Shown here: piece after piece, positions 1 through 42,241 of the stretch
How positions within the stretch are numbered: the stretch's first letter is position 1
Layout: the number at the start of each line of letters is the position of its first letter
Assembly (NCBI GenBank): GCA_903880655.1
Contig: CAIRQE010000106.1
Location: 1 to 62,801, forward strand
DNA length: 62,801 nucleotides
DNA from: an uncultured bacterium
GTDB lineage: Bacteria; Patescibacteriota; Saccharimonadia; Saccharimonadales; CAIOMD01
Direction: 5' to 3'
Made by a program: the position numbers and the translations under genes
Notes under the pieces: generated by a model
Database searches by the model: none
Seen by the model: only the letters and a program-made list of their open reading frames with translations
What the model was told of the DNA's origin: nothing

Positions 1-83
1 ATAAAGCCAAAGGTAAGTCATTAGCGGGTCTAACACGTAGACGTAAAGCTGAGATGGCACTTTTTTTAACTAGCACTGCATAG
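1..83 (+). CDS. 3' end of a CDS truncated by the window edge
   Basis: Only frame 3 is open from the window start to TAG at 81-83 (..KAKGKSLAGLTRRRKAEMALFLTSTA*). It ends 20 nt before the next structural gene. Confidence 0.3.
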   Translation, partial: KAKGKSLAGLTRRRKAEMALFLTSTA

Positions 84-103
84 AATTATTTAGGGGTTGA
101 TGG

Positions 104-2523: not shown

Positions 2524-2532
2524 AGATTACAC

Positions 2533-10263: not shown

Positions 10264-10306
10264 AGTATAATATCTTCTATACTAACAAACACTAGACGGA
10301 AGCAGC

Positions 10307-24043: not shown

Positions 24044-24077
24044 TCAGCTCCTTAAGGGAGCGACTCGTTTCTTCTAT

Positions 24078-26350: not shown

Positions 26351-28171
26351 CTAACACTCTGCTAAACTTTTACCATACTTGCCTTCAGCATCTAGGGGTA
26401 GCCCAGCCATCCAAAGGGGTGTTTTAGTCATCTCTTCTATCAGAAAATCTAAAGCCTCTTGAGCCTCATCTTCTGGAGCTAGGATATATAAAGCATCATG
26501 AATAGTCAGTACAATAGGATACCGTTTATTCACTCTTACCATAGCTTCTGACATAATGCATCGGGCTGTACCCTGCACTAGATTGTTCGTTAATTTACCG
26601 CCGTATAGTCTATCATAACCATTTCTAAGTTTATATTTATATCCTCGTTCTCCTGTCTCTTTATTAACTTCATGAGCCAACTCAGGGTACTGCATGTACA
26701 TGCCTGAAGGAAACTTAATACCTTTCGTACCCTCAACAGCGAATATGTCGTTATTGCCAAAAGTAAAATTACTGTTAAGTGCCATAGCCTTAATAGCATC
26801 ACCACACTTACTCCACAGACCAGTAACACCTGTGTAAGTCGATCTATATAAGTCCACAATCTCTTGTGCATTGGGTAAGTCCTTCCCTGACCCCGCCTTC
26901 ACAGCCGCTCGTAGCTTTGCCGCCCCAACCCCAAAGATTAAACTTAACTGCGATGTCTTACCAATAAACCTCTGATCTTTAGTTACCTCATCATAAGGCA
27001 CATCAAACACCTTACTAGCAAAGTCCTTATATAAATCACCCCCTTCACCTAGTAACTTCAAAGCACTCATCTCACCTGCCACCCACATACCCACACGTAG
27101 CTCGATGTTTGATAAGTCAGCACCTACTATTACCTGCCCTTGTGGGGCTACGATGGCTTCTTTTAATATCGACCCTCTAGGTAAGTTCTGAAAGTTTACC
27201 TTCTGCCCACTACCTGCAGCCCATCTACCTGTCGCCGCCCCATAGTATTTTAGAGGGATAGGGAGGCTACCCATTCTATTAGCTATATTCATAAACCGAA
27301 TTGTTCGAGTCTCTTCTAGTGTACTCTTAACCCCCAACCTAGCTAGTGCTAGAGCTTGTACTGTAGGATTAGAATGTTCTAGTAGGGCTTTAAACCCATC
27401 ATCAGTTTTAGCAAATGCGTAGGTGTTCTCCCCTGTAGTAGGTGATACCTTCATAGGTACTTCTACCCCATGATCCTCTAACAACTTAGCAAACTTAGGG
27501 TTACTCATGAGCTCAGACTTATCTGCCGCTACAGTCGATAGCAACCTTTCTTTCTCATCCAAAACGTAGTCAAGATGGGCTTGTAGTAACAGCATATCTA
27601 CTTCCAGCTTGGCATCTGCACCCATCCTAATGGTCATGTCTATTAGGCTTAGCTCTGTCGAGTTAAAGTGGGGTGTTAGTTTCTGTAGTAACTTATAAGT
27701 TAATTCTGTGTCGTTAATACAATACTCGCCGTACCTAGCTAACTCCTCCTTAGTAAAGTCTTTACGGTATTTACCCATAGCATCAACAACCTCAGTACCC
27801 TTAACCCCCAGCTCATAATGCTCTGCCAGCTTAGCTAAGCTACCTCCTACCGATATACCATGTACAGCACGTGCCATAGATAGAGTGTCCATATACCTAG
27901 CTGGAAAGATACCAAAGTAAAGGCTAAGGATAGATGCATCAAAGAAACAGTTGTGTGCTACTAAAGTAATGTCGTTCCAATTATATCTATTAAGTATATT
28001 AGTTATCTGTAATCGACTACCTGTATGCCATGTGGTAGGGGCATCACCTAACTTAATAGATACTCCAATAACTTCAAACTCATCTCCATTTATATATTCT
28101 TCTGTGGTCAGCTTTGATAGGCTGTAGGTTTTAGAATAGAACGACTCTATATCTAATGTCATCAACTGCAT
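26351..28171 (-). CDS. family A DNA polymerase with 3'-5' exonuclease domain
   Basis: 606 aa. Exo motifs LDIESFY, HNCFFDASIL, YCINDTELTY. Pol motifs GADLSNIELRV (A), RFIGKTSQLSLIFGVG (B), LTIHDALYI (C). Confidence 0.9.
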   Translation of the reverse strand: MQLMTLDIESFYSKTYSLSKLTTEEYINGDEFEVIGVSIKLGDAPTTWHTGSRLQITNILNRYNWNDITLVAHNCFFDASILSLYFGIFPARYMDTLSMARAVHGISVGGSLAKLAEHYELGVKGTEVVDAMGKYRKDFTKEELARYGEYCINDTELTYKLLQKLTPHFNSTELSLIDMTIRMGADAKLEVDMLLLQAHLDYVLDEKERLLSTVAADKSELMSNPKFAKLLEDHGVEVPMKVSPTTGENTYAFAKTDDGFKALLEHSNPTVQALALARLGVKSTLEETRTIRFMNIANRMGSLPIPLKYYGAATGRWAAGSGQKVNFQNLPRGSILKEAIVAPQGQVIVGADLSNIELRVGMWVAGEMSALKLLGEGGDLYKDFASKVFDVPYDEVTKDQRFIGKTSQLSLIFGVGAAKLRAAVKAGSGKDLPNAQEIVDLYRSTYTGVTGLWSKCGDAIKAMALNSNFTFGNNDIFAVEGTKGIKFPSGMYMQYPELAHEVNKETGERGYKYKLRNGYDRLYGGKLTNNLVQGTARCIMSEAMVRVNKRYPIVLTIHDALYILAPEDEAQEALDFLIEEMTKTPLWMAGLPLDAEGKYGKSLAEC

Positions 28172-28692
28172 TTGTATGTCTCCCCTCGTACGATTAAGCT
28201 AATACACATTTGAGATACATTAAACTCTCTAGCTAGAGCAGTTTGCACTTCTCCTATACGATACCTAGTTCTAATGTCATCTATCTGAAGCCTGTTTAAC
28301 TTAGAGTTTACGTGCTCTTCCCCTTTTGGTTGAACTCTCCTACCCTTTTTATAAGCATCTAATTGGTTATCCCTGTAAGACCCTAAAAAGAAATGGTCTG
28401 GGTTACAGCACTTCCTGTTATCACACTTATGTAGTACATGCGTTACTGCCCTATGTGATTTTGGGGCTGACATACTATCTACTAACCCTTTAAGATATGC
28501 TGCTACTCTATGAGCAGTGTAAAGCTTGCCATGCCACGCCACAGTACCGTACCCTATATTATTTAAACTCCCTTGCCATTCCCAACACCCTGCTCCTTGT
28601 GTATCTACCCGCCCCCAAAATGATTCTGCTGTTTGCTTAACCATTCTGATCCATCGTGAACTACAGGAAAGTAAACATACAAAGTAGTCCAA
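28162..28692 (-). CDS. HNH homing endonuclease (free-standing)
   Basis: HVLHKCDNRKCCNPDHFFLGSYRDNQ is an HNH core, with a C-terminal HTH-like tail. Probable start MVKQTAESFWG at 28644. The 3' end overlaps the polymerase start by 10 nt. Confidence 0.7.
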   Translation of the reverse strand: MDYFVCLLSCSSRWIRMVKQTAESFWGRVDTQGAGCWEWQGSLNNIGYGTVAWHGKLYTAHRVAAYLKGLVDSMSAPKSHRAVTHVLHKCDNRKCCNPDHFFLGSYRDNQLDAYKKGRRVQPKGEEHVNSKLNRLQIDDIRTRYRIGEVQTALAREFNVSQMCISLIVRGETYKCS

Positions 28693-30253: not shown

Positions 30254-30554
30254 TTTCCTCACCATTTGACATTCTCCTCAAGTGCTCAACTAATTTATCT
30301 ACGTTCGTAGCGTTTATGCAGATGCCAGCCCCACCACTCTGAATGATTCTATCTAGCTCACGTTGTTGGATTGCCGTAGGCTTTAAGTCGTTTGCCTTAC
30401 ACTCAATAGCTAAGAACTTACCCTGCACACAACATATTATATCTGGTATAGCTGACCTGCCATACCCATTAGCCGCTGGAAAGAAGTGCCATACATCTGC
30501 ATCAATTAGTGCCTTCTTAACTTTATCTTTAACCTCACCTTCTTTAGTCCTCAT
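30231..30554 (-). CDS. VRR-NUC domain nuclease (PD-(D/E)XK; Holliday-junction-resolvase-like)
   Basis: 107 aa. [23 protein letters not shown] core. Confidence 0.75.
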
Positions 30555-31236
30555 CTACAAGCTCCTTACTACTTCTGTATTCTAAAAACGCTAAGTCATC
30601 TGCTATTTTTTCTTCTGCTATTTTTGTAGCACTCCAAATGCGGGACATGTCAACTTCGTCCTCCCCCAAACAAACACGAACTCTATTAAATCTAGAAGGG
30701 TGTCTTAGCTTCCTAAGAGCCTTAGCTTCTATCTGTCTTACACGTTCTCTTGTTACTCCTATTACGTCTCCCACCTGCTCTAATGATAGAGGGTCTCCTT
30801 CAAACCCAAACCTTAACTTTAATACATTAGATTCTCTAGGGGTTAGTTTTGTGTCTAAGGTAAAGTCTATAACCTCTTTTAATTGGTCGTTCTCAAGATT
30901 TAGTATAGGGTCAGAGATATTCTCAAGTCGTGTTAGCTCATGGTAAGAATACTCAAGTTCTCGTGTATTAGACTCTATAGGGGTAAGCTGCTCTAACGAC
31001 CACACTTCATCAAGACTTTTACCAAAGTAAGAGCATATCTTCTGTGCTGTTTCTTTTACAATACCTTTTGGGTTTAAGGGAGATTCAGACATATTGATAT
31101 ACCCACTTAACACAGAATATGAAATACCCGCCTCCTTAGCCGCCACATACCCAGCTACTCCTTTAGCCTCAATCAATTTAAGTATATTGTTATTCCTTAC
31201 TCGTACCGTTACTCGGTAATCTTTATGCTCATTCAT
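30544..31236 (-). CDS. sigma-70 region-4-containing transcription factor with N-terminal HTH
   Basis: [47 protein letters not shown] is a canonical region 4. The N-terminal [21 protein letters not shown] is XRE-like. No clear region 2 seen. Confidence 0.6.
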
Positions 31237-31477
31237 CTGTAAATTCTCCTACATCTATATAGTCCCCTATACGTGGTGGGGATTCGCCTGTCGCCTTAAG
31301 CCAGTAGTCTAGCATCTCGATGCCTTCTAACCACCCTGCTGGTGGGGCTTTAGTTTCTTGTTTAACACAACTCAGTGTACCCATAGCTGTATCAGTCTTT
31401 CTAGCTATATCAGCTAGAGTGTGTCCTCTCTTGTACAACACTTTTAACATCAACGCGAAGTCAAGCTGTCTAACCAT
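31229..31477 (-). CDS. small HTH protein (82 aa)
   Basis: [25 protein letters not shown] fits an HTH. Confidence 0.45.
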
Positions 31478-32145
31478 AAACCCCTCAATCTAGTTCGTTC
31501 TTTATCACAGTGAGCTATTACTTTTTTATTCTTACGCATGAAATTAACTATGTGTACTGCATCTCCTGATAATGTTATGCGGGCTTTCTTATGTGCTGAC
31601 GGGTCAAATGCTAATAGGTCTACAATATAGGGGAGCCAGCCATCTATCTCTTCCTTGTTATATAACTTACTGCCATCTAGCCTAGTGTACATATGGGCTG
31701 GCATCATATACCGCTTATCCTTTGCCACCCTAGAACGTAGCCTCTCGTATGTTATACCTATCATCTTGGCTATATCTATCATGGTATAAGCATTGTTATC
31801 CCCCTCAAGTGGTGCTACATACGTAGGCTTGGTACGTCTAGGCACTCTTTTGCGTTTGATTGGAGCGGGCTCGACAGGTTTAAAGGAAACAGGTTTCGGG
31901 TTCAGAGTCATTTGAGCTTGTACCTCCTCCATTTTTAACGCACGTTTGTTTTCGTTAAGCCGCTCTTTATTCTTGTGGTAATACTCTAAAGCTTTCGCCC
32001 TATACTTTTCTCTATTGAGCTGATAATAATCTTTGCGGTATTGCATATCTGTGGTATCTTTATCTTGCATAATGTGTTTCCTTTTATTGTTATTGGTTGG
32101 GTTGGTTTTGCGTTCATAGGGGTTACGGTAAATACGTAACCCCAT
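31450..32145 (-). CDS. basic DNA-binding-like protein (HTH); likely true start MQDKD at 32070
   Basis: Lys/Arg-rich N-terminal half. MIDIAKMIGITYERLRSRV is HTH-like. Confidence 0.45.
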   Translation of the reverse strand: MGLRIYRNPYERKTNPTNNNKRKHIMQDKDTTDMQYRKDYYQLNREKYRAKALEYYHKNKERLNENKRALKMEEVQAQMTLNPKPVSFKPVEPAPIKRKRVPRRTKPTYVAPLEGDNNAYTMIDIAKMIGITYERLRSRVAKDKRYMMPAHMYTRLDGSKLYNKEEIDGWLPYIVDLLAFDPSAHKKARITLSGDAVHIVNFMRKNKKVIAHCDKERTRLRGLWLDSLTSR

Positions 32146-32453: not shown

Positions 32454-32939
32454 CTAACCCCTCCTAAAGTCATGTAACTCAAGCTTAGCCTTAACGTAAG
32501 CATCTCTAGCTTCTTCTTTTGTTTTATAGGTACCTAAGCAGTATGCTTTACCTTGTACATTTATCCTTGCGGCATAGCTACCAGACCTAGTTAAAGTTAC
32601 CCCCGTATATCCAGAAGTATTTCTTACATTAATCTTATGGTTTTGTTGTTGCTGGCTACGGGTAGCTTCTCTCAGGTTACACCATCTATTATCATTACGT
32701 ACCCCATTAATATGGTCTATATGTAAAGTAGGAAATACCCCTGTCATAACAAGCCACGCTAATCTGTGCGCCCTATAGTTAACTTTACCAACATGAACAT
32801 AGTCGTACCCATGGCTATCTGTTGATGTTGCTCTACTTCCAGCGGGTATTCTCCCCCATCTACCCATTTTATGTACCCATATAAAGGCTCCAGTTTCAGG
32901 GTCATAATGCAGTTTTTTAATAGCTTCTTCGTAGGTCAT
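32454..32939 (-). CDS. HNH-AP2 homing endonuclease
   Basis: HYDPETGAFIW, AHRLAW and HIDHINGVRNDNRWCNLR (HNH), followed by GYTGV..YAARI..LGTYKTKEEA (AP2-like). Confidence 0.8.
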   Translation of the reverse strand: MTYEEAIKKLHYDPETGAFIWVHKMGRWGRIPAGSRATSTDSHGYDYVHVGKVNYRAHRLAWLVMTGVFPTLHIDHINGVRNDNRWCNLREATRSQQQQNHKINVRNTSGYTGVTLTRSGSYAARINVQGKAYCLGTYKTKEEARDAYVKAKLELHDFRRG

Positions 32940-34099
32940 TAGTCTATCCTTATAGTGGAACCAAATGGAGGTACAGTAGTCTTATTGCCTACCATTACCC
33001 ATAGAACAGGATAAGGGGGAGTATTTTTTGGATACTCAATCCATCCGTCTGTTATAAGTATACACACAACTGGATTACTTTTCATATCTTTTTCTACATA
33101 GTCAAATACACACAGGGAACTAGAGCCCCCTCCACCTTTAGGCTTGGTAGATGTGAGTAACCCACTGTAATTCTCTTCACGATACTGCTCGTGAGCGGCA
33201 ACCTCTGTATCCCAGTAAAGTAAATCTACTTTTTCGGGAGTTGTATTATCACATATACTAACTAACTCTGCCAATGCTTTTGCAATATCTTCGCCTGGTA
33301 TACTGCCTGATGTATCTATACCTACACAGATACTACCAATGCTCTCACTGATTTGACTAGGCATGTACACATCATGCTGTAACCAACGTCTATTAGGCTT
33401 AGCCCATGTGCTATCCCCCTTACCTGCACATACTGTCGATACGAACTCACGTAACTGCTCAGCCCAATTAACCTTAGACTGCATCACAGCATCAAAGCTA
33501 CGGTCTACCTCACCCCCCTGCTTACCTGCTAACAGTGCACCAGTACGTACAGCACTATCTATCTCCTTAGCTAACGCCTCCTTCTCTGCCTCGTCTAAAC
33601 TCTTAGCACCGTCCCAGTCATGCTCGTCCAGTGGCTTACCGCCGTTGCCCTTACCGTTCTTCTTATCTTCCTTCAACCTAGCGAACACCTCGCCGCTATC
33701 TAGCCCTCGATACATCTCGTCTACTAACCCTCCCTCTGGCATAACAAGGAAGTCGCCCCACTTGTTAAGGTCTTGTATCTCTAGGTTGATAACGTAATCA
33801 CATGCTTGGTTGGCTAACCAAGCATCTTCCTCATGAATCTTACGCCATACAAATAGATGCTGATATAACTTGTGCTTGGTCTCATGTAGTATAAGAAACC
33901 GTAACTCACTATCCTTAAGGCTCTCAACGAAAGCCCTACCATATGTAACATCACGCCCATTGGTACTTGCTGTAGGGCAGTCATCTTTCACCTCTATCTT
34001 ACCTACCATTAACAACCCTGAGTATGCTAGGGTACGCTTGTCTTGCATCAATGAAATATGGGCACGAGTCAACCTATCCTCTGCACTTAAATTAGACAT
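32939..34099 (-). CDS. VWA-domain protein with N-terminal HExxH metallopeptidase-like domain
   Basis: LILHETKHKLYQH (HExxH) and the MIDAS-like GIDTSGSI. Partner of the AAA+ ATPase upstream. Confidence 0.75.
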   Translation of the reverse strand: MSNLSAEDRLTRAHISLMQDKRTLAYSGLLMVGKIEVKDDCPTASTNGRDVTYGRAFVESLKDSELRFLILHETKHKLYQHLFVWRKIHEEDAWLANQACDYVINLEIQDLNKWGDFLVMPEGGLVDEMYRGLDSGEVFARLKEDKKNGKGNGGKPLDEHDWDGAKSLDEAEKEALAKEIDSAVRTGALLAGKQGGEVDRSFDAVMQSKVNWAEQLREFVSTVCAGKGDSTWAKPNRRWLQHDVYMPSQISESIGSICVGIDTSGSIPGEDIAKALAELVSICDNTTPEKVDLLYWDTEVAAHEQYREENYSGLLTSTKPKGGGGSSSLCVFDYVEKDMKSNPVVCILITDGWIEYPKNTPPYPVLWVMVGNKTTVPPFGSTIRID

Positions 34100-34184
34100 T
34101 TTAATTCTCCAATATACAGCCCCTGTAAAGGCAGGGGCGAAGCCTTATATGTAGTACGCTGGTACTACGCCTGATAACTGTTCC

Positions 34185-34646
34185 TTATTTACTCTCTACC
34201 CAGAATGGGTGATGTTCTCTCTTAGCACATAGATATACATCTCGTGCCTCCTCTGGTGTATCGTAGTAACCTAAGAACTTATTTACACCTTTTATTGATA
34301 TGGCTGCTTGCCATTTACCTCTAGTCGTACTCCAGCTCATTCCTTTACAAGTACTATTGTTTTGTCCGTTCTCCTTGTCAGTATCTAATCTAAGATTGCA
34401 TATTCTATTGTCGTCTTTAGCTTCATTAATATGGTCTATAGAATATAGGGGTGGTACCCCATGATAGAAGTACCATGCTAGTCTATGAGCTAAGTACCTC
34501 TTAGTTTTATATTGGATATACACGTACCCATTTTTAGCTTTATGTCCTGCTATTTTATTTAGTTTATTCTGTCTACCTGTATTCCTTACCCAAGTAAACA
34601 GTCCAGTCTCAGGGTCATAGGATAAATAATCTTTGATGTCTAACAT
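34185..34646 (-). CDS. HNH-AP2 homing endonuclease (paralogue of 32454-32939)
   Basis: SYDPETGLFTW, AHRLAW, SIDHINEAKDDNRICNLR, then GMSW..WQAAI..LGYYDTPEEA. Confidence 0.8.
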   Translation of the reverse strand: MLDIKDYLSYDPETGLFTWVRNTGRQNKLNKIAGHKAKNGYVYIQYKTKRYLAHRLAWYFYHGVPPLYSIDHINEAKDDNRICNLRLDTDKENGQNNSTCKGMSWSTTRGKWQAAISIKGVNKFLGYYDTPEEARDVYLCAKREHHPFWVESK

Positions 34647-34742
34647 GATACCTCCAGTTAAGGTCAGTGAAAATGGGTGGTCAACGCTTACTGAAGGCGT
34701 GTTCGGTTTGCATACCTAGACCACAAAACCATTATACCATAA

Positions 34743-35819
34743 CTAATTAAAAAGGTAGCCGTTATTCACAGCCCACTCAGTAAAGACCCTATTAGTAACT
34801 GCTATGCTACGCTTAGGAGACTTACTACTCATAACACTCATAGCGAACAGAGCCTGTGCTTCTTTAGACAGTCGTGCCATATACTGCATCCAGCTACCAA
34901 AGGTAGTATCTTCTACGTTACTTAATGCCTTTGATACTATCAAGCAGGTGGACGCACCGTTATGTGGGACTACAGTAGTAGTCGGGTTGTTGATGATTTC
35001 AGCCCAGCTTGGCATGGTGTTGCTTAACTTCAAGACATTCATCATATCCATCGTAGCCCTCTCACCGATAACCCCAAACAATGCGTGGGTCAGTACATCT
35101 TCAGGCATATCACGGCACATCTTAAGTATGTCAGATGCTTTCTCTAATGAACGTGGCGTAACGAACGCCGCTCTTGGTACACGTGGGTCATTGATGTACT
35201 CATTCATATCGGGGCGCTCATAGTCCTCGAATGATGCCAGCATAGCTGGATACTCTATAGCTGTAGCTATTACTACAGGGTCAACCCCTGCGTTCTGTGC
35301 ATAGTCCCATCGCCACTGCTCTGCAGTTGGTTTACGCATCTTAACTACACATAATCTATTACGTGCATGGGGTGGTATGTTATCGCCTATACCCTCAACC
35401 GCTAAGTTGGTAGTCGCAAAGACTATTGACCCCTCTGGTAGTGCATGTATGCCGAGCTTACGTTCTAGCATCAGTCGTAGACAAGCGTTCATCACAGCTT
35501 TAGATGCCTTACCTACCTCATCAAGCATAACTATCAAGGGTTTATCTAAGTGAAACCCAAACTCTTCGTTGGGTATGAACGAGCAGACAGGGACATCATT
35601 AACTGAGCGTATTTGTGGAACTAAGAAGTCACCCACATCTTTAGTAGTGATGTCTATGTAGCATGGGATATGGTTGGGGTGGGACTCTGATAGAGTCTTA
35701 AGTATAGATGACTTGCCTATCCCCATCTCTCCCTGTACAAGGACAGTGAGCCGCTCACCTACTGAGCTGATAAGTTTGATAGTGTCTTGCATAGTGATTG
35801 AACTATATGGCTTCTTCAT
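34743..35819 (-). CDS. AAA+ ATPase (MoxR/CobS-like)
   Basis: Walker A VQGEMGIGKSS, Walker B LIVMLDEVGKA. Paired with the VWA protein. Confidence 0.8.
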   Translation of the reverse strand: MKKPYSSITMQDTIKLISSVGERLTVLVQGEMGIGKSSILKTLSESHPNHIPCYIDITTKDVGDFLVPQIRSVNDVPVCSFIPNEEFGFHLDKPLIVMLDEVGKASKAVMNACLRLMLERKLGIHALPEGSIVFATTNLAVEGIGDNIPPHARNRLCVVKMRKPTAEQWRWDYAQNAGVDPVVIATAIEYPAMLASFEDYERPDMNEYINDPRVPRAAFVTPRSLEKASDILKMCRDMPEDVLTHALFGVIGERATMDMMNVLKLSNTMPSWAEIINNPTTTVVPHNGASTCLIVSKALSNVEDTTFGSWMQYMARLSKEAQALFAMSVMSSKSPKRSIAVTNRVFTEWAVNNGYLFN

Positions 35820-35843
35820 TATCGTATCCTAATTGTTTGGTAT

Positions 35844-35857
35844 GGGTACTTGTACCC
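35844..35857. promoter_or_regulatory. palindrome GGGTACTTGTACCC, copy 1 of 7 (candidate operator / 5'-UTR hairpin)
   Basis: Exact 14-mer, 24 nt upstream of the AAA+ ATPase ATG (35819, minus strand). Confidence 0.6.
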
Positions 35858-35921
35858 GAAATGTCAGCCCCTTAAGGGAGCGATGCTTTACTTCAACTGC
35901 AGGTATATTACACGTTATGTG

Positions 35922-36320
35922 TCATGGTGTGTCAAGTGTCTCCCCTATGGGGTATGGTTCGCCTTCTGTTTCTAAGTGTATAGACTGTGTTGGGAACACT
36001 ATATCGACTGTATATATGTCTTGTCCTTCATCATCTTTACCATCTTGATCTATATCTCCTATCTCCTCACCTACTCTACAGAATGCCCACGCACAACCCT
36101 GTGCTTTAGCATCTTCGAGCAACCGCTTATGTGCTATCACTAACTCATACTCGTCATACCACTTGACCCGCCAATGATAGAATAAAATAGTCGTGTCATC
36201 TACTAAATTAAACTCCTTTAAATCAATCTCAGGATCTAGTGCCTGAGCCGCCATGAATCTTATGCGGTGCTCTTTATTTTTAAACGCGATTGTGTACGCT
36301 ACATCACTACGGTATCCCAT
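35922..36320 (-). CDS. hypothetical protein (132 aa)
   Basis: ORF in operon register. Confidence 0.5.
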   Translation of the reverse strand: MGYRSDVAYTIAFKNKEHRIRFMAAQALDPEIDLKEFNLVDDTTILFYHWRVKWYDEYELVIAHKRLLEDAKAQGCAWAFCRVGEEIGDIDQDGKDDEGQDIYTVDIVFPTQSIHLETEGEPYPIGETLDTP

Positions 36321-36334
36321 TACTCTTCTCCTAA

Positions 36335-37207
36335 TTAAAACAAATCTAATATGGCGTCTACGTCACGCTTCAAGGTAACACGTACATAATCTGAGTCCTT
36401 AATGTCTTTACTATCAATGCCAGTAAAGCTGTCCTCTAACTTAATACGCATAGCCTCTAGTTGAGTGTCGCCCTTGATATTGAAATGGGTGAGTAGCCCA
36501 CACAGCTCACGTGTGTTCTCCAACACGCTATCGTATATCTTGCCTTTACTACCGTCCTCATTAGTACGCAACCCAAAGCTAAGCTGGGTAAGTATCCTGT
36601 GTAACCTGTCGTATGCGTCAGCATGTACCTTCTCTATGTTTGCCTGATACATCATGTCATATTGATCCTTAAGGTCGTTAAGCCCCTCGTTACCTATATC
36701 AATACGCCAGTCGCCTGACTCTGGCAATGGGTTGTACCGTACTACAAAGCCGAACTTGCTTATAACCTCCTGTGCATCAGGATACTCAGCTCTATCAAAG
36801 AGCGTGCCCAACTGGAACGCCGCCGCACTTACCCTTAAGTTGTAATCTGCAATAAAGTCATTCACTAAGCCCCAATACTGCTTCTCAAGTCGTGCCATCT
36901 CACTCTTATAAGTAAAGAACTGAGCAGTAGTCAGCAAGCGGTCGCCATTGTCGTTCCACGGTGATGTCTGTGTCATGTGGTAAGTTCTGATAAGCCCTGC
37001 CAGCTTTTGGATTGCCGCAAGTGAGTCATCACCTGCTAACAGATTCTTGTGGTAGTTGCCCGCTTTTGTTCTCGTACTATTTGATATGTCTACATCATTA
37101 GATACTTTCTTATCCAGCTTGCGAGCTGTCCACAGGCTGATGCTAAGTGATACCAGCATAGCTGATGATGAAAGGCTTTTTACGTTTGTATTTGTATTTG
37201 ATGTCAT
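36335..37207 (-). CDS. hypothetical protein (290 aa; possibly DUF3150-like)
   Basis: Start moved to MTSNTNT (37207): a GGAGAA RBS and the palindrome lie upstream, and the longer ORF would translate through the palindrome. The family call is from memory only. Confidence 0.5.
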   Translation of the reverse strand: MTSNTNTNVKSLSSSAMLVSLSISLWTARKLDKKVSNDVDISNSTRTKAGNYHKNLLAGDDSLAAIQKLAGLIRTYHMTQTSPWNDNGDRLLTTAQFFTYKSEMARLEKQYWGLVNDFIADYNLRVSAAAFQLGTLFDRAEYPDAQEVISKFGFVVRYNPLPESGDWRIDIGNEGLNDLKDQYDMMYQANIEKVHADAYDRLHRILTQLSFGLRTNEDGSKGKIYDSVLENTRELCGLLTHFNIKGDTQLEAMRIKLEDSFTGIDSKDIKDSDYVRVTLKRDVDAILDLF

Positions 37208-37230
37208 GATGTTCTCCAAAATTAAAAGGT

Positions 37231-37244
37231 GGGTACTTGTACCC
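37231..37244. promoter_or_regulatory. palindrome GGGTACTTGTACCC, copy 2 of 7
   Basis: Exact 14-mer, 23 nt upstream of the ATG at 37207 (minus strand). Confidence 0.6.
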
Positions 37245-37388
37245 AATGGTTGGGGTGTATCAGCACAAGGCGGTAAAGCGTACATATTAATAGGCTGCCC
37301 TGCCTGATACCTCTGCGGTTAATTCAAACGCCCACTCACAGATATACGGCGTCTGGGCTTATTCACCTACCCGGCTTAGGTCACACAT

Positions 37389-37565
37389 TTAATCTTCGTC
37401 TACTCTTAATAGCTCAGCTATCAGTTTTTCATTGCTATAATTGTGTAGGTAAAATCTTTTATACAAGTCAATCCTAAGGTCAGACCATTCAATATTGTAA
37501 TCATTACTCGTTATCATGCGACCCATTAACACATCTATAACCTTTACACGCTCTTCCTTAGTCAT
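37389..37565 (-). CDS. short ORF (58 aa), not in the ORF track
   Basis: MTKEERVKVIDVLMGRMITSNDYNIEWSDLRIDLYKRFYLHNYSNEKLIAELLRVDED. Its ATG forms an ATGA overlap with the stop of the upstream gene at 37562. Confidence 0.35.
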   Translation of the reverse strand: MTKEERVKVIDVLMGRMITSNDYNIEWSDLRIDLYKRFYLHNYSNEKLIAELLRVDED

Positions 37566-38143
37566 GACAGACTCCCGTCCTCTTCGAAGTCCATGTATTC
37601 CACACCTTCAAAGAAGTTATCCATAGAGAACTCATACTCATAAGCGTTCTCCAGCTCACGGTACAGTTGCCGCATGTAGTCCCTGCATTGCCGTTCAATA
37701 TCAGGCTCAGCATCGGTCATCACCTTATCAAACTTTCCAACATCGTTAGTTTCTATATCCCAATCAAGCGTTATGGTATTTTCATGGCAATAGTGGCGGT
37801 GCTGTGTTTTTCGTAGGAGCACCATGTACTCCGCATAGTCGTCTGACAATGTATCAAACGGTACTGTAGATATGTACAACTCAATGTGTTTTTGTCTTAC
37901 ATCAGGGTGGGCTTCAAGAAACTTTTTTAGGTTTATACTGCCCTCAAAACTAGCACCATCTCCCTGTGAATGGAACCCACTCCAATGCATGTCATACACC
38001 TCAGTATCAATACCAACATCTTCAAGTCGCTCAACCCAATCTTCGAGCACGTGATGTGCCCAATGGTTATCGTATAGCTCCCTATTCTTAAAGCTCTCAA
38101 AGGCACGTTCCTTTGCCTCGTCTGATAACTCGTTATATTGCAT
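37562..38143 (-). CDS. hypothetical acidic protein (193 aa)
   Basis: ORF in register. Contains a WSGFHSQGDGASFEG motif. No function assigned. Confidence 0.5.
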   Translation of the reverse strand: MQYNELSDEAKERAFESFKNRELYDNHWAHHVLEDWVERLEDVGIDTEVYDMHWSGFHSQGDGASFEGSINLKKFLEAHPDVRQKHIELYISTVPFDTLSDDYAEYMVLLRKTQHRHYCHENTITLDWDIETNDVGKFDKVMTDAEPDIERQCRDYMRQLYRELENAYEYEFSMDNFFEGVEYMDFEEDGSLS

Positions 38144-38152
38144 GATGTTCTC

Positions 38153-38320
38153 CTACGCATACCATTTAGGTAATGCTTTGTATTCTTTTACTAAGTTGGG
38201 GTACTCAGCTTCAAGCAATTTGCACAGCAGTCTATCTGCATATAAGTGCATGCTCTCTATGTCCTCTTTATGTTCATCACATATAGCTTTTAATTGTTCT
38301 AATGCTTGTTGCTCATTCAT
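38153..38320 (-). CDS. short ORF (55 aa from MNEQQALEQL)
   Basis: Start moved downstream of the palindrome. AGGAA RBS precedes the ATG at 38320. Confidence 0.4.
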   Translation of the reverse strand: MNEQQALEQLKAICDEHKEDIESMHLYADRLLCKLLEAEYPNLVKEYKALPKWYA

Positions 38321-38355
38321 CGTCTTATTCCTATTTATTATTAAGTTGTTGTTAT

Positions 38356-38369
38356 GGGTACTTGTACCC
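38356..38369. promoter_or_regulatory. palindrome GGGTACTTGTACCC, copy 3 of 7
   Basis: Exact 14-mer, 35 nt upstream of the ATG at 38320 (minus strand). Confidence 0.6.
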
Positions 38370-38423
38370 GATTCAGTAGTCAACCGCTTAAGGCGGTGAA
38401 TCTTTTATCAAACTACAGGACAT

Positions 38424-38454
38424 ATTATACGCCCTTTCCCAGTGTGTGTGTCAA
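38424..38454 (-). promoter_or_regulatory. sigma-70-like promoter candidate (TTGACA-N19-TATAAT)
   Basis: Both hexamers match consensus perfectly on the minus strand (38454-38449 and 38429-38424), but the 19-nt spacer is longer than optimal. Confidence 0.3.
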
Positions 38455-38530
38455 GTCATTGATTTAATTAGCTTTTATTTAGGGGAATGGGGATTCCCCA
38501 TAGAGACCTGTTTCCCTCTTAGCTTCCCTC

Positions 38531-39778
38531 TTAGCTTCCCGCTTTCCTCGTTACCAGTATGTCTCCGTTCCTTAACTTCTGTTTGAACCCTTTTAGTTTG
38601 CTCAGTCGTTTCTCGAACTCTCGTATGGCATCAGCCTCACTCCATGCATAAAAGTCTGGTATCTTGCCTCTCTCTACCACTCCTTGCACCACCCATTGCC
38701 CTTTAATATGCTTTATGTTGCGTGTGTACCCATACACTCTCTTACACGCACGTGCACGCACCTGCTTCTTTAATGTAGGGTCTTTAGTGATAGTCGCCGT
38801 ACTGACAGCGTCAGGCTTGATGTTGTCCCATCTTAAGTTGAGTGGGTCGCCGTCCATGCATGGCTTGCGTCTGGGCTTGTTGGTCTTGTGGTCGTATAGC
38901 TTCAGACCCTCTGGTGCTACGGTCGTATTTACCCTGTATGCGTTATCAATGCCGCGAGTGTAGTTCCAGTCGCCTCCTGCACCCATATAAAGGTATGCTA
39001 GTTGATTGGCAGTGTATTCTTTCCCTAACAGCACTATGCGTACGTATGGGTTGTTCTTCTTAAGGTAGTATGGCACTCTTATTAGCTCGTCTGTCGCTCC
39101 TTGTGGCGCTTTCTTTGCATAGAACAGTCGGTATATGTCCGTTTGGCGTCCTTTCTGGGTTTGTGCTTGTGCTTGTGCTGTTAGATACGCCTCCTCACTC
39201 ACTATATGATACCCTGACAACCTTGACGGCTTGCGTGGTAGTTTGCTCTTGTCCTTTGCTTTACCCTTTGCATTGGACTGTTTTGTATGCTTACTTGGAG
39301 GCTTATTTGGCGGCATTACTACTCTACCTGCTCTTTTACCTGCTAGTGAGCCTGTTTGCCACTCAAATGTGCCTTCCTCTGGGTCGTAGTATAAGTGGTG
39401 CTTCAGTTGCTCTTGCGTTAGTGGTTGCGCTCGTGCTTGCAGCCGCCTTTCTTTGTCTTGGGTACGTGTACCCGATATTGCATCTTCTATCGCCGTCTTT
39501 ACGTAATGTTTAAGTAGTAGGGTCTCTTTACCAGTGTTGGGGTTAGTGTATATATAGTTAGCCAGTGCTGTTAGTTCATCTATTACTGCATTACGCCTAT
39601 CTCTTTTCTCTATCTGTTCTTGCACTGACAGTCTTTTTTGCAGTTGTTTGTTTTCCCTCTCTGCTTGCTTACTTAAAGCGTATTTATATCGCCTATATTC
39701 ATTTGCATGGATTCTGTTTAGTCTTGATGCTTCAGATAGTCCTAAGTAGTATTGCGCTGTTCTTTTTATAGGTTGCAT
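38531..39778 (-). CDS. degenerate HNH/AP2-like DNA-binding protein (415 aa), catalytic His residues replaced
   Basis: YYDPEEGTFEW, ANQLAY (AHRLAW in the paralogues), CMDGDPLNLRWDN (IDHIN..DNR..NLR in the paralogues), plus a long Lys/Arg-rich insert. Confidence 0.5.
   Translation of the reverse strand: MQPIKRTAQYYLGLSEASRLNRIHANEYRRYKYALSKQAERENKQLQKRLSVQEQIEKRDRRNAVIDELTALANYIYTNPNTGKETLLLKHYVKTAIEDAISGTRTQDKERRLQARAQPLTQEQLKHHLYYDPEEGTFEWQTGSLAGKRAGRVVMPPNKPPSKHTKQSNAKGKAKDKSKLPRKPSRLSGYHIVSEEAYLTAQAQAQTQKGRQTDIYRLFYAKKAPQGATDELIRVPYYLKKNNPYVRIVLLGKEYTANQLAYLYMGAGGDWNYTRGIDNAYRVNTTVAPEGLKLYDHKTNKPRRKPCMDGDPLNLRWDNIKPDAVSTATITKDPTLKKQVRARACKRVYGYTRNIKHIKGQWVVQGVVERGKIPDFYAWSEADAIREFEKRLSKLKGFKQKLRNGDILVTRKAGS
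39460..39473. promoter_or_regulatory. palindrome GGGTACGTGTACCC, copy 4 of 7 (intragenic)
   Basis: Lies inside the 415-aa ORF and encodes SGTRTQ. Confidence 0.5.
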
Positions 39779-39812
39779 TAGGTTTGTCCTTTTGGGCTGT
39801 TTTGAGGCTGTA

Positions 39813-39842
39813 ATTGTAGTACACGTGTCACATAAAAATCAA
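39813..39842 (-). promoter_or_regulatory. sigma-70-like promoter candidate (TTGATT-N18-TACAAT) for the 415-aa gene
   Basis: Hexamers at 39842-39837 and 39818-39813 on the minus strand. The ACACGTGTCACA element lies in the spacer. The ATG is ~35 nt downstream of the -10. Confidence 0.3.
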
Positions 39843-39850
39843 GATATACG

Positions 39851-40142
39851 TTGACAATGAACAAGTAAAAATTCTCTAAGGGCACGTAGAACGGGCTTGT
39901 GACGGAGTAGGTAAGGCAAAAATTAGTGTTATTAAAGATTTGGAATTATGAGAGAGGAAGAACAAAAAGAAGTAAAAAAACATATATTCCCCTGTACAAC
40001 ACGTGTCACAGGGAAAAAGAAGAAATTTTGAAAAACTTTCCTCTCTATATATATATTATAATAATAATAATAATAATAAGACCTTTTTTTTCTAACCCTC
40101 ACCGCTGCTGGGCTCACAGGAATTTTAGTTGTTCATTGTCAA
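39851..40142. repeat. inverted repeat arms TTGACAATGAACAA (39851-39864) / TTGTTCATTGTCAA (40129-40142) flanking an AT-only tract
   Basis: 14-bp perfect reverse complements. The similarity continues as [G/C]TAAAA(A)TTC on each inward side. Confidence 0.8.
40046..40079. repeat. AT-only microsatellite: TA run followed by (ATA)7
   Basis: tatatatatattataataataataataataa. 34 nt with no G or C, followed by T8. Confidence 0.9.
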
Positions 40143-40392
40143 TGCATTGCGCCCTATTTTCTGTTACACGAGTTTCTCACCTGCTCACTATCCTTATGCT
40201 AAACATCACCATCACGCATACACATTACAGACAACTAGCATGTTCTTTATAAAGCGATTTAAGGCTCATTTAGGGCAATGTAGCACTTTTTTATTATCGA
40301 CGCGTAAAGGGCATGCTACTTCGCTTAAATCGCATAGCTTAGTTTAGTAAAAGAAACAGGTATCAAATTCAGCGCGTGGCTGAATTTTAGGC

Positions 40393-40416
40393 AAAAAAAA
40401 GCCCCCTTTCGGGGGC
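40393..40416 (-). terminator. rho-independent terminator after the 225-aa gene
   Basis: Minus strand reads GCCCCCGAAAGGGGGC followed by TTTTTTTT. Confidence 0.7.
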
Positions 40417-40419
40417 TTT

Positions 40420-40433
40420 GGGTACTTGTACCC
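40420..40433. promoter_or_regulatory. palindrome GGGTACTTGTACCC, copy 5 of 7
   Basis: 2 nt after the stop at 40436 and 3 nt before the terminator hairpin. Confidence 0.55.
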
Positions 40434-40435
40434 AA

Positions 40436-41113
40436 TTATTTTGTTTCGCGATCCACGTACACGTTTATTTCTTTTGCCAGAACTAGCAGTTCTGGTAGGC
40501 TTAGATACTTAACCAAACTATTTAAAGACGCGTCTACCATTTTTTGACTGGCATCACCTATTTTTAAATCAGGTTTAAGCGCAACCTTTACGGGTTGCTC
40601 AATGGTATTTTTACTTGCTGGTGTGGCTGGTGTGGCTGGTGTGGCTGGTGTGGCTGGTGTAGCATCTTGGGTACTTGTACCCAAAACTTCGGTTTTTAAC
40701 GCGTCAATTTTATCTTGTTTTTCTTTCTCAATCAGTGCCTTGCTTGCTTTTTCAGCCTTAACAAACGCCGCCTTTTTAACGGCTAACTCTTCAATACTAA
40801 ACAACCGCACCTTTTCAATGGTGCTAGTAGCCTCTAAATAAGAAGCAAAGTTTTTGGCGCGTGTTCCATTGCTATCTAACCAATTACAGTAAATGGTTGA
40901 CAATTCAAAGGCTTGAACCCTTTTATGGTCGGTATATAGCCCTTTTGCAATGCTACGTATACTTTCACGGGTGGGATTGGTTGCCATAATGGCAAGCGAT
41001 TCTTTTTTGAACAACTCTATATCCTTGTTGTCAAACAGCCTATTGGCTATAAGGCTTAAAGCAGTTAGTTTCATAGTTAATATTTCAGTTTGTTTGTTAG
41101 TGTTAGTAGTCAT
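40436..41113 (-). CDS. hypothetical protein (225 aa) with (ATP)5 repeat
   Basis: First gene of the minus-strand arm. Has a predicted promoter and palindrome upstream and a terminator downstream. Confidence 0.55.
   Translation of the reverse strand: MTTNTNKQTEILTMKLTALSLIANRLFDNKDIELFKKESLAIMATNPTRESIRSIAKGLYTDHKRVQAFELSTIYCNWLDSNGTRAKNFASYLEATSTIEKVRLFSIEELAVKKAAFVKAEKASKALIEKEKQDKIDALKTEVLGTSTQDATPATPATPATPATPASKNTIEQPVKVALKPDLKIGDASQKMVDASLNSLVKYLSLPELLVLAKEINVYVDRETK
40617..40661 (-). repeat. 9-bp x5 in-frame tandem repeat encoding ATPATPATPATPATP
   Basis: gctggtgtg x5 on the plus strand, 8 nt from palindrome copy 6. Confidence 0.9.
40669..40682. promoter_or_regulatory. palindrome GGGTACTTGTACCC, copy 6 of 7 (intragenic)
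   Basis: Lies inside the 225-aa ORF and encodes LGTSTQ. Confidence 0.5.
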
Positions 41114-41136
41114 TTGATTTACCTATTAAGATGGTT

Positions 41137-41150
41137 GGGTACGTGTACCC
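41137..41150. promoter_or_regulatory. palindrome GGGTACGTGTACCC, copy 7 of 7
   Basis: 23 nt upstream of the ATG at 41113 (minus strand) and ~35-45 nt downstream of the predicted promoter. Confidence 0.6.
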
Positions 41151-41190
41151 GAAAAGTTAAGTTGTTGTGTTTTGCTAGAACACGGTAATC

Positions 41191-41219
41191 ATTCTACTAG
41201 CTTTGTGTCATTATGCCAA
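41191..41219 (-). promoter_or_regulatory. sigma-70-like promoter candidate (TTGGCA-N17-TAGAAT) for the leftward early operon
   Basis: Hexamers at 41219-41214 and 41196-41191 on the minus strand with an exact 17-nt spacer. Confidence 0.4.
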
Positions 41220-41489
41220 CTATTGTTTCATTGTGTTTCTAACGGTCTATATTATAAGGAATAGAATAAACTAATAAAACTCTATAGAAATCAATGACTT
41301 ACGAAGGGTACGGGGTGGGCAACCCCCCTTTTCAATTAGGAGTCCCTATTTTGTACTATACTATGTTACACACAACCAAATTCTAAATTCCCCAATTTTC
41401 CTAATTCCCCCTAAGCCCCTCTTAACACCTAGCTTCCAAGTCCTTTTAGTGTACTCCATTCAAATTTCCCTTGACCTCCAATTTATTTT

Positions 41490-41515
41490 TTGATAAGCTG
41501 TGCACAGCTTATCAA
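41490..41515. promoter_or_regulatory. 26-bp perfect palindrome TTGATAAGCTGTG|CACAGCTTATCAA
   Basis: Perfect dyad flanked by T-runs. Overlaps a possible TTGACC-N17-TAAGCT promoter (41471-41499) facing the packaging genes. Confidence 0.5.
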
Positions 41516-41653
41516 TTTTCACTCCCTCCCGCCAAAACACCCCCCGTCACTAAAATAAGTGCCAAAGCAAAAAAATTTTTCTACAAAAATTTAGAAAACC
41601 ATGATAGGCTAGAGATTATCTGAACCTTTGAGTTCTGCGCATACTGGTATATT

Positions 41654-42241
41654 ATGGATCCTGAATTAGAAACAATTCTAGAATTAGAAGCCCTTTTAGC
41701 TCCATCCGAGCGAAGTGCTGAGAGCACCTTTTTACAAGCCCAAGAAGTGTTTGCCGACAGATCATTCTTACTGAACAACGGCGTACCTTATACAAAACTC
41801 CCCCCTGAATTTACAGCCCAAGAAAAGAACGAAGCCTTGAGCATTTTTCTTGAACAGCCCGATGCACCTCTTGCACCTACTACATCCGGCGCCGCGAAAG
41901 CCCTTGAGAAACTATTAAAACGGTTCGACTACAATCTCCCCAATGCAACAAACAAGATGCGGCAGTATCTAATCTTTAAGATGTTTGAATTGGCAGAAAG
42001 TGATGACCCTAAGTTAGCTATAAAAGCCCTAGAGATGCTAGGTAAGGTGTCAGAGATTGGGCTGTTCAGTACCAAAATAGAAATAGCAACGACTGATAAG
42101 CCTACAAAAGAGTTAGAAACAGAGCTTTCAAGTTTATTAGCCACATACTCACTAGGGGATTTAGTTGCTAGAGAGGTTAAAGAAGCCCCACAAGAGATTA
42201 CTGACGAAGAATTACGAGGAGAAGTGCATGATGAGGCCTGA
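41654..42241 (+). CDS. acidic protein immediately upstream of the large terminase; candidate small terminase subunit
   Basis: 195 aa. Called on position only; no motif recognised. Confidence 0.35.
   Translation: MDPELETILELEALLAPSERSAESTFLQAQEVFADRSFLLNNGVPYTKLPPEFTAQEKNEALSIFLEQPDAPLAPTTSGAAKALEKLLKRFDYNLPNATNKMRQYLIFKMFELAESDDPKLAIKALEMLGKVSEIGLFSTKIEIATTDKPTKELETELSSLLATYSLGDLVAREVKEAPQEITDEELRGEVHDEA

Follow-up and report, generated by a model that had tools for sequence, protein, structure and literature searches.

The 62,801-nucleotide window analysed here (contig CAIRQE010000106.1) looks like a complete phage genome, and the subject of this work is a short palindrome, GGGTAC-NN-GTACCC, that is repeated seven times in its early region. 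The plus-strand arm (41654-62801, continuing through 1-17455) encodes terminase, portal, capsid and tail proteins and a 2382-amino-acid internal virion protein, in which only SLT and LPD38 domains were recognised. On the minus-strand arm (41113 to 17483) lie, in addition to ORFans, the genes for a MoxR-like ATPase, a DUF2201 protein, HNH endonucleases, a sigma-region-4 protein, a DNA polymerase, a helicase, a primase and an exonuclease. The seven palindromes, termed hp2 in their transcribed form, occupy the promoter-proximal first 5.3 kb of this early arm. The cultured phages closest by TerL were 023Pt_psg01, Pelagibacter phages HTVC027P and HTVC023P, DSL-LC04 and Synechococcus phage MinM2, with 48-56% identity, and region 34500-42000 gave no DNA-level match to 50,697 phage records. 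No tRNA genes were found in the window. Domain and profile searches of the early and other window proteins scanned detected no repressor or integrase family, and domain searches with the 2382-amino-acid protein and the other large open reading frames (ORFs) gave no match to a phage RNA polymerase. A host search by a leader 20-mer in 185,579 genomes returned coincidental matches only, in Bacteroidota coding sequence and elsewhere.

The palindrome (GGGTAC-NN-GTACCC, or GGGTACKTGTACCC) was matched exactly at plus-strand positions 35844, 37231, 38356, 39460, 40420, 40669 and 41137 (n = 7), as the preliminary description had listed. The motif is real and far from chance: 0 matches were obtained in 100 dinucleotide-preserving shuffles versus 7 in the window. 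The scan of the whole 62.8 kb also confirmed that full copies are restricted to 35844-41150, all 7 lying within 5.3 kb. When up to two mismatches were allowed, the only extra matches were those at 27455 and 54717, compared with a chance expectation of 1.3, and relaxation of the spacer to any 0-8 nucleotides (nt) gave no further copy in the window. On the minus strand, which is the sense strand of the local genes, the motif reads T-Y-GGGTAC-A(A/C)-GTACCC-A. The extension of the dyad by flanking bases, also proposed beforehand, was found in part of the copies, with arms of 8 base pairs (bp; TTGGGTAC..GTACCCAA) at 40420 and 40669 and of 7 bp at 37231; in the other four, the C at position -1 stands opposite an A.

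All features of the early arm described below are on the minus strand. Four copies lie in 5' untranslated regions (UTRs), and their earlier stated distances from the start codons were reproduced. Copy 1 (41137-41150, sense GGGTACACGTACCC) precedes the ATG of the first early gene at 41113 by 23 nt and lies about 40 nt past the -10 element of the promoter at 41219-41191. Copy 5 (38356-38369) stands 35 nt before the ATG at 38320, copy 6 (37231-37244) stands 23 nt before the ATG at 37207 and is followed by a U-rich tract, and copy 7 (35844-35857) stands 24 nt before the ATG at 35819 of the MoxR-like ATPase gene. A U-tract was absent after most of the copies. The start codons corrected with the palindromes as landmarks (37285 to 37207 and 38383 to 38320) agreed with the orthologues in related phages. 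The two copies described as intragenic are copy 2 (40669-40682), which encodes LGTSTQ within the first early gene (40436-41113), and copy 4 (39460-39473), which specifies SGTRTQ within the variable linker that joins two conserved parts of the 415-amino-acid gene 38531-39778.

Copy 3 (40420-40433) was confirmed between the TAA stop codon of ORF 40436-41113, which it follows by 2 nt, and the intrinsic terminator of the first early gene, and it has the 8-bp arms TTGGGTAC/GTACCCAA. The terminator (AAAGCCCCC-GAAA-GGGGGCTTT followed by a T run; 40398-40419) abuts the palindrome, and in the predicted fold hp2 stacks directly on the terminator hairpin, with z = -4.45 for the two together. No Rfam family was matched at the gathering score in the whole window; the sub-threshold matches over this terminator, to rimP-leader (E=0.045) and Phe_leader (RF01859, E=0.58), were the sole ones in 33500-41700. 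An eighth hairpin of another type (T3, see below), with the sense sequence GTAGTAC-cagc-GTACTAC, was located at 34151-34168, 51 nt before the ATG at 34099, where it adjoins the HNH gene 34185-34646.

Sigma-70-type promoters were recognised ahead of three of the 5'-UTR copies, and the fourth has a -10-like TAATAT. The first early promoter, TTGGCA-17-TAGAAT, was placed at 41191-41219. The promoter upstream of copy 5 (38424-38454) comprises TTGACA (38454-38449), a 19-nt spacer and TATAAT (38429-38424), the spacer being 17 nt in the orthologues; the one upstream of copy 7 (35905-35935) comprises TTGACA (35935-35930) and TG-n-TAATAT (35910-35905). The palindrome begins about 35-55 nt 3' of the -10 element, and in this genome no copy extends into a promoter. 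The leader layout common to the window and its relatives was TTGACA-17-TATAAT, a conserved transcript start, a first hairpin (hp1), hp2, an A/C-rich spacer, AGGA and ATG. The conserved start CTGTAGTTTGA lies directly 3' of the promoter at 38454-38424, and in all lineages the start could be written as CTGTAGTTTGAAG...AAAGATTC, also as CTGTAGTTTGAAG / TAGATTGAAG, corresponding in the window to ~38423-38400 and 35904-35885. A -10-like TAGnTT hexamer lies within this block a few nt past the start site; in position it may resemble the sigma-70-dependent promoter-proximal pause elements of lambdoid late promoters.

The hp1 element consists of a 5-bp stem NCCNC, a CTYAA pentaloop and the complementary arm followed by TGAC or TGGC, and it is located 25-35 nt past TATAAT. 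ACCGC-CTTAA-GCGGT, a boxB-like stem with a pentaloop, lies upstream of copy 5 (38383-38397), and GCTCC-CTTAA-GGGGC, with a U.G wobble on the sense strand, lies upstream of copy 7 (35867-35881). A third window copy (24047-24061) is immediately 5' of the Shine-Dalgarno sequence (SD) of the helicase gene. The hp1 stems covary among sites (GCTCC/GGAGC, ACCGC/GCGGT, GCCCC/GGGGC, ACCCC/GGGGT, ACCAC/GTGGT and ATCCC/GGGAT), and U.G wobbles were seen on the sense strand only (GCTCC..GGGGC at 35881-35867 and ACCCT..GGGGT in relative L145). In the related loci, about 30 sense copies were counted versus 1 antisense copy. Judged by this pattern, hp1 is clearly an oriented, RNA-like element. In the minimum-free-energy folds of the leaders, both hp1 and hp2 were formed and the SD and AUG were left unpaired.

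Relatives, denoted here by L numbers, were collected by a motif scan of IMG/VR and by subsequent searches with two early proteins and the first early protein, which resulted in about 13 distinct early regions; the site survey covered 109 distinct hairpin sites in 13 genomes. The hp2 stem was found to depend on the lineage, being GGGTAC, GTAGGAC, GTAGTAT or CTAAGTTA. Type T1, GGGTAC-nn-GTACCC, is present in the window, L121/L138, L148, L149, L101 and L056. Type T2, GTAGGAC-n3-4-GTCCTAC, occurs in L132/L142 and L134/L145, and type T3, GTAGTA[T/C]-n2-6-[A/G]TACTAC, in L126/L140, L127, L129/L139, L131, L141, L130/L144 and L143. Type T4, (C)TAAGTTA-interior-TAACTTA(G), was detected in L122/L137 and L124/L135 and also in the L126-L131 group. 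The genomes are mosaics that mix hairpin types. In the 65-kb contig L134/L145, a scan of the whole collection found exactly seven T2 copies, all inside 7.1 kb of the early region, so the confinement to the early region is a family trait.

The conservation that the preliminary description had proposed to check at orthologous 5' UTRs was confirmed for the hairpin site and the leader layout; the GGGTAC stem itself is exchanged for other types by lineage. In the alignment of the ATPase leaders, the promoter, transcript start, hp1, SD and ATG are kept, and hp2 is T1, T4, T3+T4 or T2. The site behind the stop codon, before the first-gene terminator, carries T1, T4b or T2 according to lineage. The exchange extends into coding sequence: at the same alignment position inside the 415-amino-acid gene, SGTRTQ (T1), KLYPYN (T4), VVCDTT (T3) and VGQRPT (T2) are encoded. 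New points here are the concerted, lineage-specific replacement of the hairpin, coding and post-stop sites included, and its use as a cassette joint.

Five GGGTAC-NN-GTACCC copies were also observed in L111 (333, 608, 732 and 10634) and L037 (2651), and a sixth, with a 1-nt spacer, at L111 6637. These derive from an unrelated viral contig of 84 kb and 35% GC (IMGVR_UViG_3300030060_002972). One of the copies lies 23 nt before an ATG, one encodes AGTSTQ and two adjoin promoter-like sites. The contig and the window have only one small protein in common, which gave no clue to a common binder.

Within one genome, all copies of a hairpin have an identical stem and their loops differ in sequence and length. 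Between the window and L138, the arms showed 0/84 substitutions and the loops 2/14, with flanks that are diverged or non-homologous at several sites. As the arms are identical though loops and flanks differ, the stem sequence is under selection. Moreover, the same stem throughout a genome and a different stem at the same sites in relatives suggest a sequence-specific reader encoded by the phage.

Such a reader could recognise either duplex DNA or RNA. Under the DNA alternative, a phage protein would bind the duplex palindromes in the manner of stoperators, block the elongating host RNA polymerase and shut off the early class, each lineage having its own protein and site specificity. The stems form perfect palindromes that do not vary within a genome and differ between lineages, and the sites lie past promoters and between, inside and after genes, at all of which a roadblock would work. 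The arm centres, about 8-10 bp apart, would suit a helix-turn-helix dimer, the T1 copies of L111 cluster around promoters, and a similar pattern is known from Cluster A mycobacteriophages, whose stoperators vary with the repressor (PMC6550527).

Against a DNA site stands, first, the spacer, which is 2, 3 or 4 nt within one genome and 7-9 nt in T4. Within single genomes, T3 loops are of 2 or 3 nt with 7-bp arms or of 4-6 nt with 6-bp arms, T2 loops of 3 or 4 nt and T4 interiors of 7-9 nt. Second, inner positions are paired: the seventh T3 pair is T-A or C-G and never a hybrid, and the T4 interiors are often self-complementary (TA-ccg-TA, GAA-cg-TTC, TAC-cc-GTA), neither of which is required by a reader of duplex DNA. 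The pairing, too, is under selection, and the geometry is not rigid. A symmetric dimer on duplex DNA needs no covariation or self-complementary spacers and would not normally tolerate a spacing change of 1-2 bp, and the hairpin is therefore favoured.

Third, the conserved flanks and loops are strand-asymmetric. The -1 position of T3 was C in 29/29 cases and its +1 position A in 20/29 and G in 9/29; T2 had C at -1 in 8/12 and A at +1 in 10/12; and T1 had A at +1 in 16/22 and T at -1 in 7/22, with the sense-strand loops AA (13), AC (6), AT (2) and TT (1). These counts include related copies and are not independent, the direction being consistent across the types. Fourth, no site in this genome covers a -35 or -10 element, and 76 of the 109 sites are in 5' UTRs, where the last hairpin is always 11-35 nt ahead of the ATG, just 5' of the SD. 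This tight coupling to start codons, which has no reason under a roadblock, holds at promoter-less intercistronic junctions too. Finally, no helix-turn-helix protein was found to change with the hairpin type, and no lysogeny module was seen. Taken together, we consider the roadblock on DNA rather unlikely. The earlier suggestion of an operator for a dimeric regulator is thereby weakened by the spacer variation of 1-3 nt per genome, the paired inner changes, the asymmetric flanks and the association of the sites with ribosome-binding sites (RBSs) instead of promoters; its counterpart, an RNA hairpin in the 5' UTR, fits better, and each leader has in addition a second hairpin with covariation and sense-strand G.U pairs. 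The favoured reading is thus a transcribed RNA hairpin whose stem sequence is probably read by something lineage-specific.

The proteins named earlier as possible binders, those with helix-turn-helix or sigma-region-4 motifs, do not change with the hairpin type: protein 30544-31236 was 96% identical in L121 (T1) and 81% in L122 (T4), and 31229-31477 was 99% identical in both. The first early gene (40436-41113), in contrast, is the sole early gene replaced outright between the closest T1 and T4 genomes. It was absent from all non-T1 loci in tblastn searches, though L121 and L122 have a 290-amino-acid protein that is 99% identical. The gene product, F1a, is an all-helical protein of 225 amino acids in which a PAT-repeat linker connects an N-terminal domain to a short C-terminal one. 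It belongs to a family F1 with F1b (L126) and F1c (L132/L134), at about 18% identity and an hhalign probability of 97.6%. The first genes of L122, L129, L131 and L130 form another family, F2, which is unrelated to F1a. No match in Pfam or PHROGs was obtained with the first early protein, with its counterparts from the relatives or with the small early ORFs.

F1a was found with T1 only, F1c with T2 only and F2 always with T4 or T4b, and among the closest relatives the F1a to F2a swap accompanies the turnover from T1 to T4. Site type follows the first early protein in T1 and T2, whereas the distribution of T3 and T4 matches that of F1b and F2 only imperfectly. The leftover T1 sites in the T4 genomes L122 and L124 look decayed: in an intragenic one of L124, the outer pair is broken by a synonymous change, and one leader of a T4 genome lacks hp2 owing to a 21-nt deletion between CCCAACCA repeats. 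The first gene is bracketed by three hp2 copies, as expected of an autoregulated regulator. The first early protein is thus a partly supported candidate for the trans-acting reader of hp2.

Two further observations concern the coding sequences that carry intragenic copies. Directly past the palindrome of the first early gene, a perfect 9-nt tandem repeat of 4.9 copies (40617-40660) encodes the PAT-repeat linker, the length and composition of which vary among the homologues (PA-, PAT- and SAPAT-rich). The C-terminal part of the second early protein (38531-39778, 415 amino acids) contains degenerate HNH-like motifs, LYYDxExGTFEW and DGDPLNLRWDNIKP, with a weak match to PHROG 99, and this protein may be an inactivated, homing-endonuclease-derived protein that binds nucleic acid.

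We infer from these comparative sequence data that the palindrome reflects, at the DNA level, a small RNA hairpin with a GGGUA/UACCC stem and a CAAG or CACG loop, which would be transcribed within the early mRNAs by the host sigma-70 RNA polymerase. The hairpin would punctuate the early operons, with one copy directly 5' of the SD region in most early cistrons, those without a nearby promoter included, and additional copies within the first two genes and past the stop codon of the first. Its stem would be read sequence-specifically by a fast-evolving, phage-encoded trans-acting factor that binds or cuts at hp2 and thereby masks, processes or destabilises early mRNAs, its own included. The likeliest effect would be a post-transcriptional control of the early class, functionally analogous to that of T4 RegB at GGAG sites. 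As a by-product, the module of hp2 and RBS would serve as a homology linker for the gain, loss and exchange of early cassettes. An RNA hairpin with a specific reader is our best explanation, with a probability of roughly 0.5.

The junctions of gained and lost cassettes bear on an alternative without a dedicated reader. In the window segment 37247-37230, the left flank of the L121 site at 8895 is joined to the loop and right flank of the L121 site at 9964, and 1.05 kb with two cassettes is removed; the copy at 37231 is the exact indel junction relative to both L121/L138 and L122/L137. In segment 38369-38316, the L121 sites at 7055 and 7480 are fused within 20 nt of shared sequence, and an 86-amino-acid cassette that is present in L121/L138 is gone. 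In the first early protein, the N-terminal domain gives way to the PAT linker and the C-terminal domain at copy 40669; the first-gene homologues P0004-P0008 have a common N-terminal domain up to the palindrome and then a different C-terminal domain. In L130, the 415-amino-acid gene begins just ahead of the hairpin. The HNH gene 34185-34646, which is 97% identical to that of L126, arrived together with the T3 hairpin at 34151-34168; at the T3-hairpin position, L121/L138 have GGGTACATGTACCC, a T1 hairpin, without the HNH gene. As a separate observation, free-standing HNH genes (34185-34646, 32454-32939 and 28162-28692) are variably present among collinear relatives, the first two being absent from L121, L122 and L124, which is typical of homing endonuclease traffic.

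These exact or nearly exact joins, the coincidence of domain-swap junctions in the first and the 415-amino-acid genes with intragenic copies, the mosaic genomes mixing hairpin types and the precedent of the PeSL cassettes (PMC2839356, PMC4122927) would all agree with hairpins that have no dedicated reader. Under that explanation, they would be generic intercistronic RNA structures (RBS insulators or decay barriers), spread by duplication and recombination of promoter-hairpin-RBS cassettes and acting mainly as homology linkers for shuffling ORFan cassettes. However, gene conversion or recent copying would move loop and arms together, and the arms are identical where loops and flanks differ. Orthologous sites, coding ones included, take the type of their own lineage and not arbitrary stems. 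Structural constraint by itself predicts covariation among the copies of one genome, and none was seen. The enrichment of breakpoints at hairpins is, moreover, modest. We therefore hold the account without a reader to be doubtful. The role in recombination is read as a consequence of the repeats and probably not as their main purpose.

A host function was weighed as well. The sites are intercistronic and ahead of early genes, like the RNase III sites of the T7 early region, and cleavage of the hairpin by RNase III had been suggested before. Classical RNase III substrates contain roughly two helical turns of double-stranded RNA. The suggestion is unlikely to hold because the stem of 5-7 bp is far shorter than that, and a host enzyme would not explain stems that differ between lineages. 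Recognition of the DNA hairpin as a promoter by a virion RNA polymerase of N4 type was considered together with it, as a 5-7-bp stem with a 2-4-nt loop superficially resembles the N4 early promoter hairpins (PMC4496689), and N4-like phages encode distant homologues of the ATPase. The searches described above revealed neither a virion nor a single-subunit RNA polymerase, canonical TTGACA/TATAAT promoters precede the leaders, and the conserved loops and variable stems of N4 (PMC4496689) are the reverse of what is seen with hp2. One copy is, furthermore, directly followed by a terminator. RNase III sites and N4-type promoters were both regarded as very improbable.

Several results weigh against the RNA hairpin with a dedicated reader. 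The hp2 hairpin alone, a 5-bp stem with a CAAG tetraloop, is weak, with a predicted -6.1 kcal/mol, and whole leaders compared with shuffles had z values of 0 to -1.4 and were not unusually stable, which indicates discrete small hairpins and not one large structured RNA. All hp2 stems are perfect Watson-Crick with zero G.U pairs, as a DNA site would show likewise. The T1 palindromes in the unrelated L111/L037, some of them beside promoters, could point to a shared DNA-binding factor. T3 was found in five F2 genomes without F1b, and T4 in L140 without F2. No RNA-binding or nuclease domain was detected in any early protein scanned. Two AlphaFold runs gave low-confidence models with a pLDDT (predicted local distance difference test) of 56 and 62.7, the latter for the first early protein, and a Foldseek search of its model against PDB gave nothing below E = 1. 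Due to the mismatch of T3 and T4 and the lack of a family or fold match, the first early protein is kept as a candidate only. As for the joints, breakpoint ends lay within 30 nt of a hairpin in 11% of cases versus 5% for random positions over all genome pairs; with an enrichment of only about twofold, the recombination role rests on the individual exact junctions.

A more specific form of the RNA reading can be put forward tentatively. In this form, a fast-evolving early protein and a stem-specific hairpin, an "address label" before every early cistron, would make up a matched pair that has diverged into at least four groups (GGGUAC, GUAGGAC, GUAGUAU and CUAAGUUA), and the same hairpins would be the joints at which cassettes and domains are shuffled. 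It would amount to an RNA-level counterpart of the repressor/operator immunity groups in an apparently lytic phage, and it could control the shut-off of early genes and perhaps the interference of relatives that infect the same cell. In lytic phages, the early regions are rich in ORFans, and their regulation is known in a few model phages only. If the pairing is true, it provides a landmark in the sequence by which the early class can be defined and gene starts corrected across an uncultured aquatic phage group, as well as an example outside the T4-type phages of short regulatory repeats guiding the gain, loss and domain-swapping of early genes. It would also provide four natural orthogonal hairpin specificities, each with a candidate protein, that could be tested in E. 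coli and maybe used as RNA-level regulatory parts. If the sites act on DNA instead, stoperator-like silencing would be extended to Gram-negative, apparently lytic phages.

Other conserved elements were noted in the neighbourhood. The first and second early genes are separated by a 620-bp non-coding stretch (39779-40397) that is conserved in the relatives. It contains an (ATA)7 microsatellite with an AT-rich run (40058-40079), pyrimidine-rich tracts and a hairpin CCCTGT..ACAGGG with an interior that differs between relatives. Two exact copies of GTGACACGTGT were found in it at 39821-39831 and 39999-40009, one of them inside the spacer of a promoter-like site (39842-39813). The stretch could be a replication origin, a small RNA gene or another operator region. 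Directly past the start codon of gene 31450-32145, a hairpin with a 9-bp stem, GGGGTTACG-7 nt-CGTAACCCC (32119-32143), is kept throughout the relatives, among which the L125-L131 group differs by the compensatory change GGGGTTACA/TGTAACCCC; read on the plus strand, it looks like a terminator, with a T run behind the hairpin. A palindrome with 12-bp arms, TTGATAAGCTGT-gc-ACAGCTTATCAA (41490-41515), with A and T runs alongside, lies in the intergenic region from which the two arms of the genome diverge. It is kept in the relatives, and in the L126/L129/L131 group both arms have changed together to TTTGATAAACTGC-nn-GCAGTTTATCAAA.

Among the known systems, the PeSL cassettes combine a sigma-70 promoter with a stem-loop, flank ORFans and undergo crossovers in or near the stem-loop (PMC2839356, PMC4122927). 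The elements described here are alike in being repeated composites of an ORFan-rich early region, with a strong sigma-70-type promoter, a stem-loop and a downstream SD and ATG; the copies at 35844 and 38356 and their orthologues hold TTGACA/TATAAT, the hairpins, SD and ATG within about 110 nt. They are also alike in the indels of ORFan cassettes between close relatives, with junctions in the element (37247-37230 and 38369-38316). In contrast, the PeSL stem-loop precedes the promoter as a terminator or attenuator, whereas the -10 element comes before hp1 and hp2, and hp2 is found also without a promoter, inside genes and past a stop codon. The hp2 stem is short, mostly without a U-tract, identical throughout a genome and swapped as a set between lineages. 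PeSLs belong to T4-type phages, whereas the present phage is of about 63 kb, with a TerL nearest to that of the Pelagibacter HTVC027P type.

The Cluster A stoperators are 13-bp asymmetric DNA sites for a monomeric immunity repressor, present in 20-30 copies genome-wide in temperate phages (PMC6550527, PMC9283540). Both they and hp2 are many copies of one short site, mostly outside promoters, with an orientation or asymmetry relative to transcription, a lineage-specific consensus that tracks genome relatedness and sites around the gene of the putative regulator itself. Unlike stoperators, hp2 is an inverted repeat of 14-18 bp with a variable loop, all 7 of its sites fall within 5.3 kb, genes for a repressor or for lysogeny were not recognised in this phage, and the evidence favours RNA.

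The endoribonuclease RegB of T4 acts at GGAG sites in early mRNAs (PMC1702504, PMC3014915). It is proposed here as a functional analogue, in that a short cis signal stands beside early RBSs and an early protein would inactivate a class of early mRNAs, its own message included. The RegB site differs in being a single-stranded 4-nt motif within the SD that needs ribosomal protein S1, while hp2 is a 14-18-nt hairpin upstream of the SD at which cleavage is only a proposal. No RegB homologue was found.

The lambdoid nut sites consist of boxA and boxB and act with the arginine-rich N protein, the boxB loop being a GNRA-like pentaloop. It is hp1, and not hp2, that resembles boxB, having a GC-rich, covarying 5-bp stem and a conserved pentaloop 25-35 nt past early promoters, after a conserved block; the succession of a first gene and a terminator is also alike. 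The hp1 loop is, in contrast, CUYAA, and no N-like arginine-rich protein was identified in the phage. As a boxB, hp2 was rejected, since its stem is invariant, its loop is variable and copies also occur far from promoters. In the N4 hairpin promoters, a purine at -11, G at -10 and G at -8 are conserved and the other stem bases are variable (PMC4496689). As an N4-type promoter hp2 was likewise rejected, having the loops AA, AC, AT and TT on invariant stems, no RNA polymerase match and sigma-70 promoters present. In its predicted mode of action, hp2 works most like a hybrid of PeSL, stoperator and the RegB/GGAG system, and it is a member of none of them.

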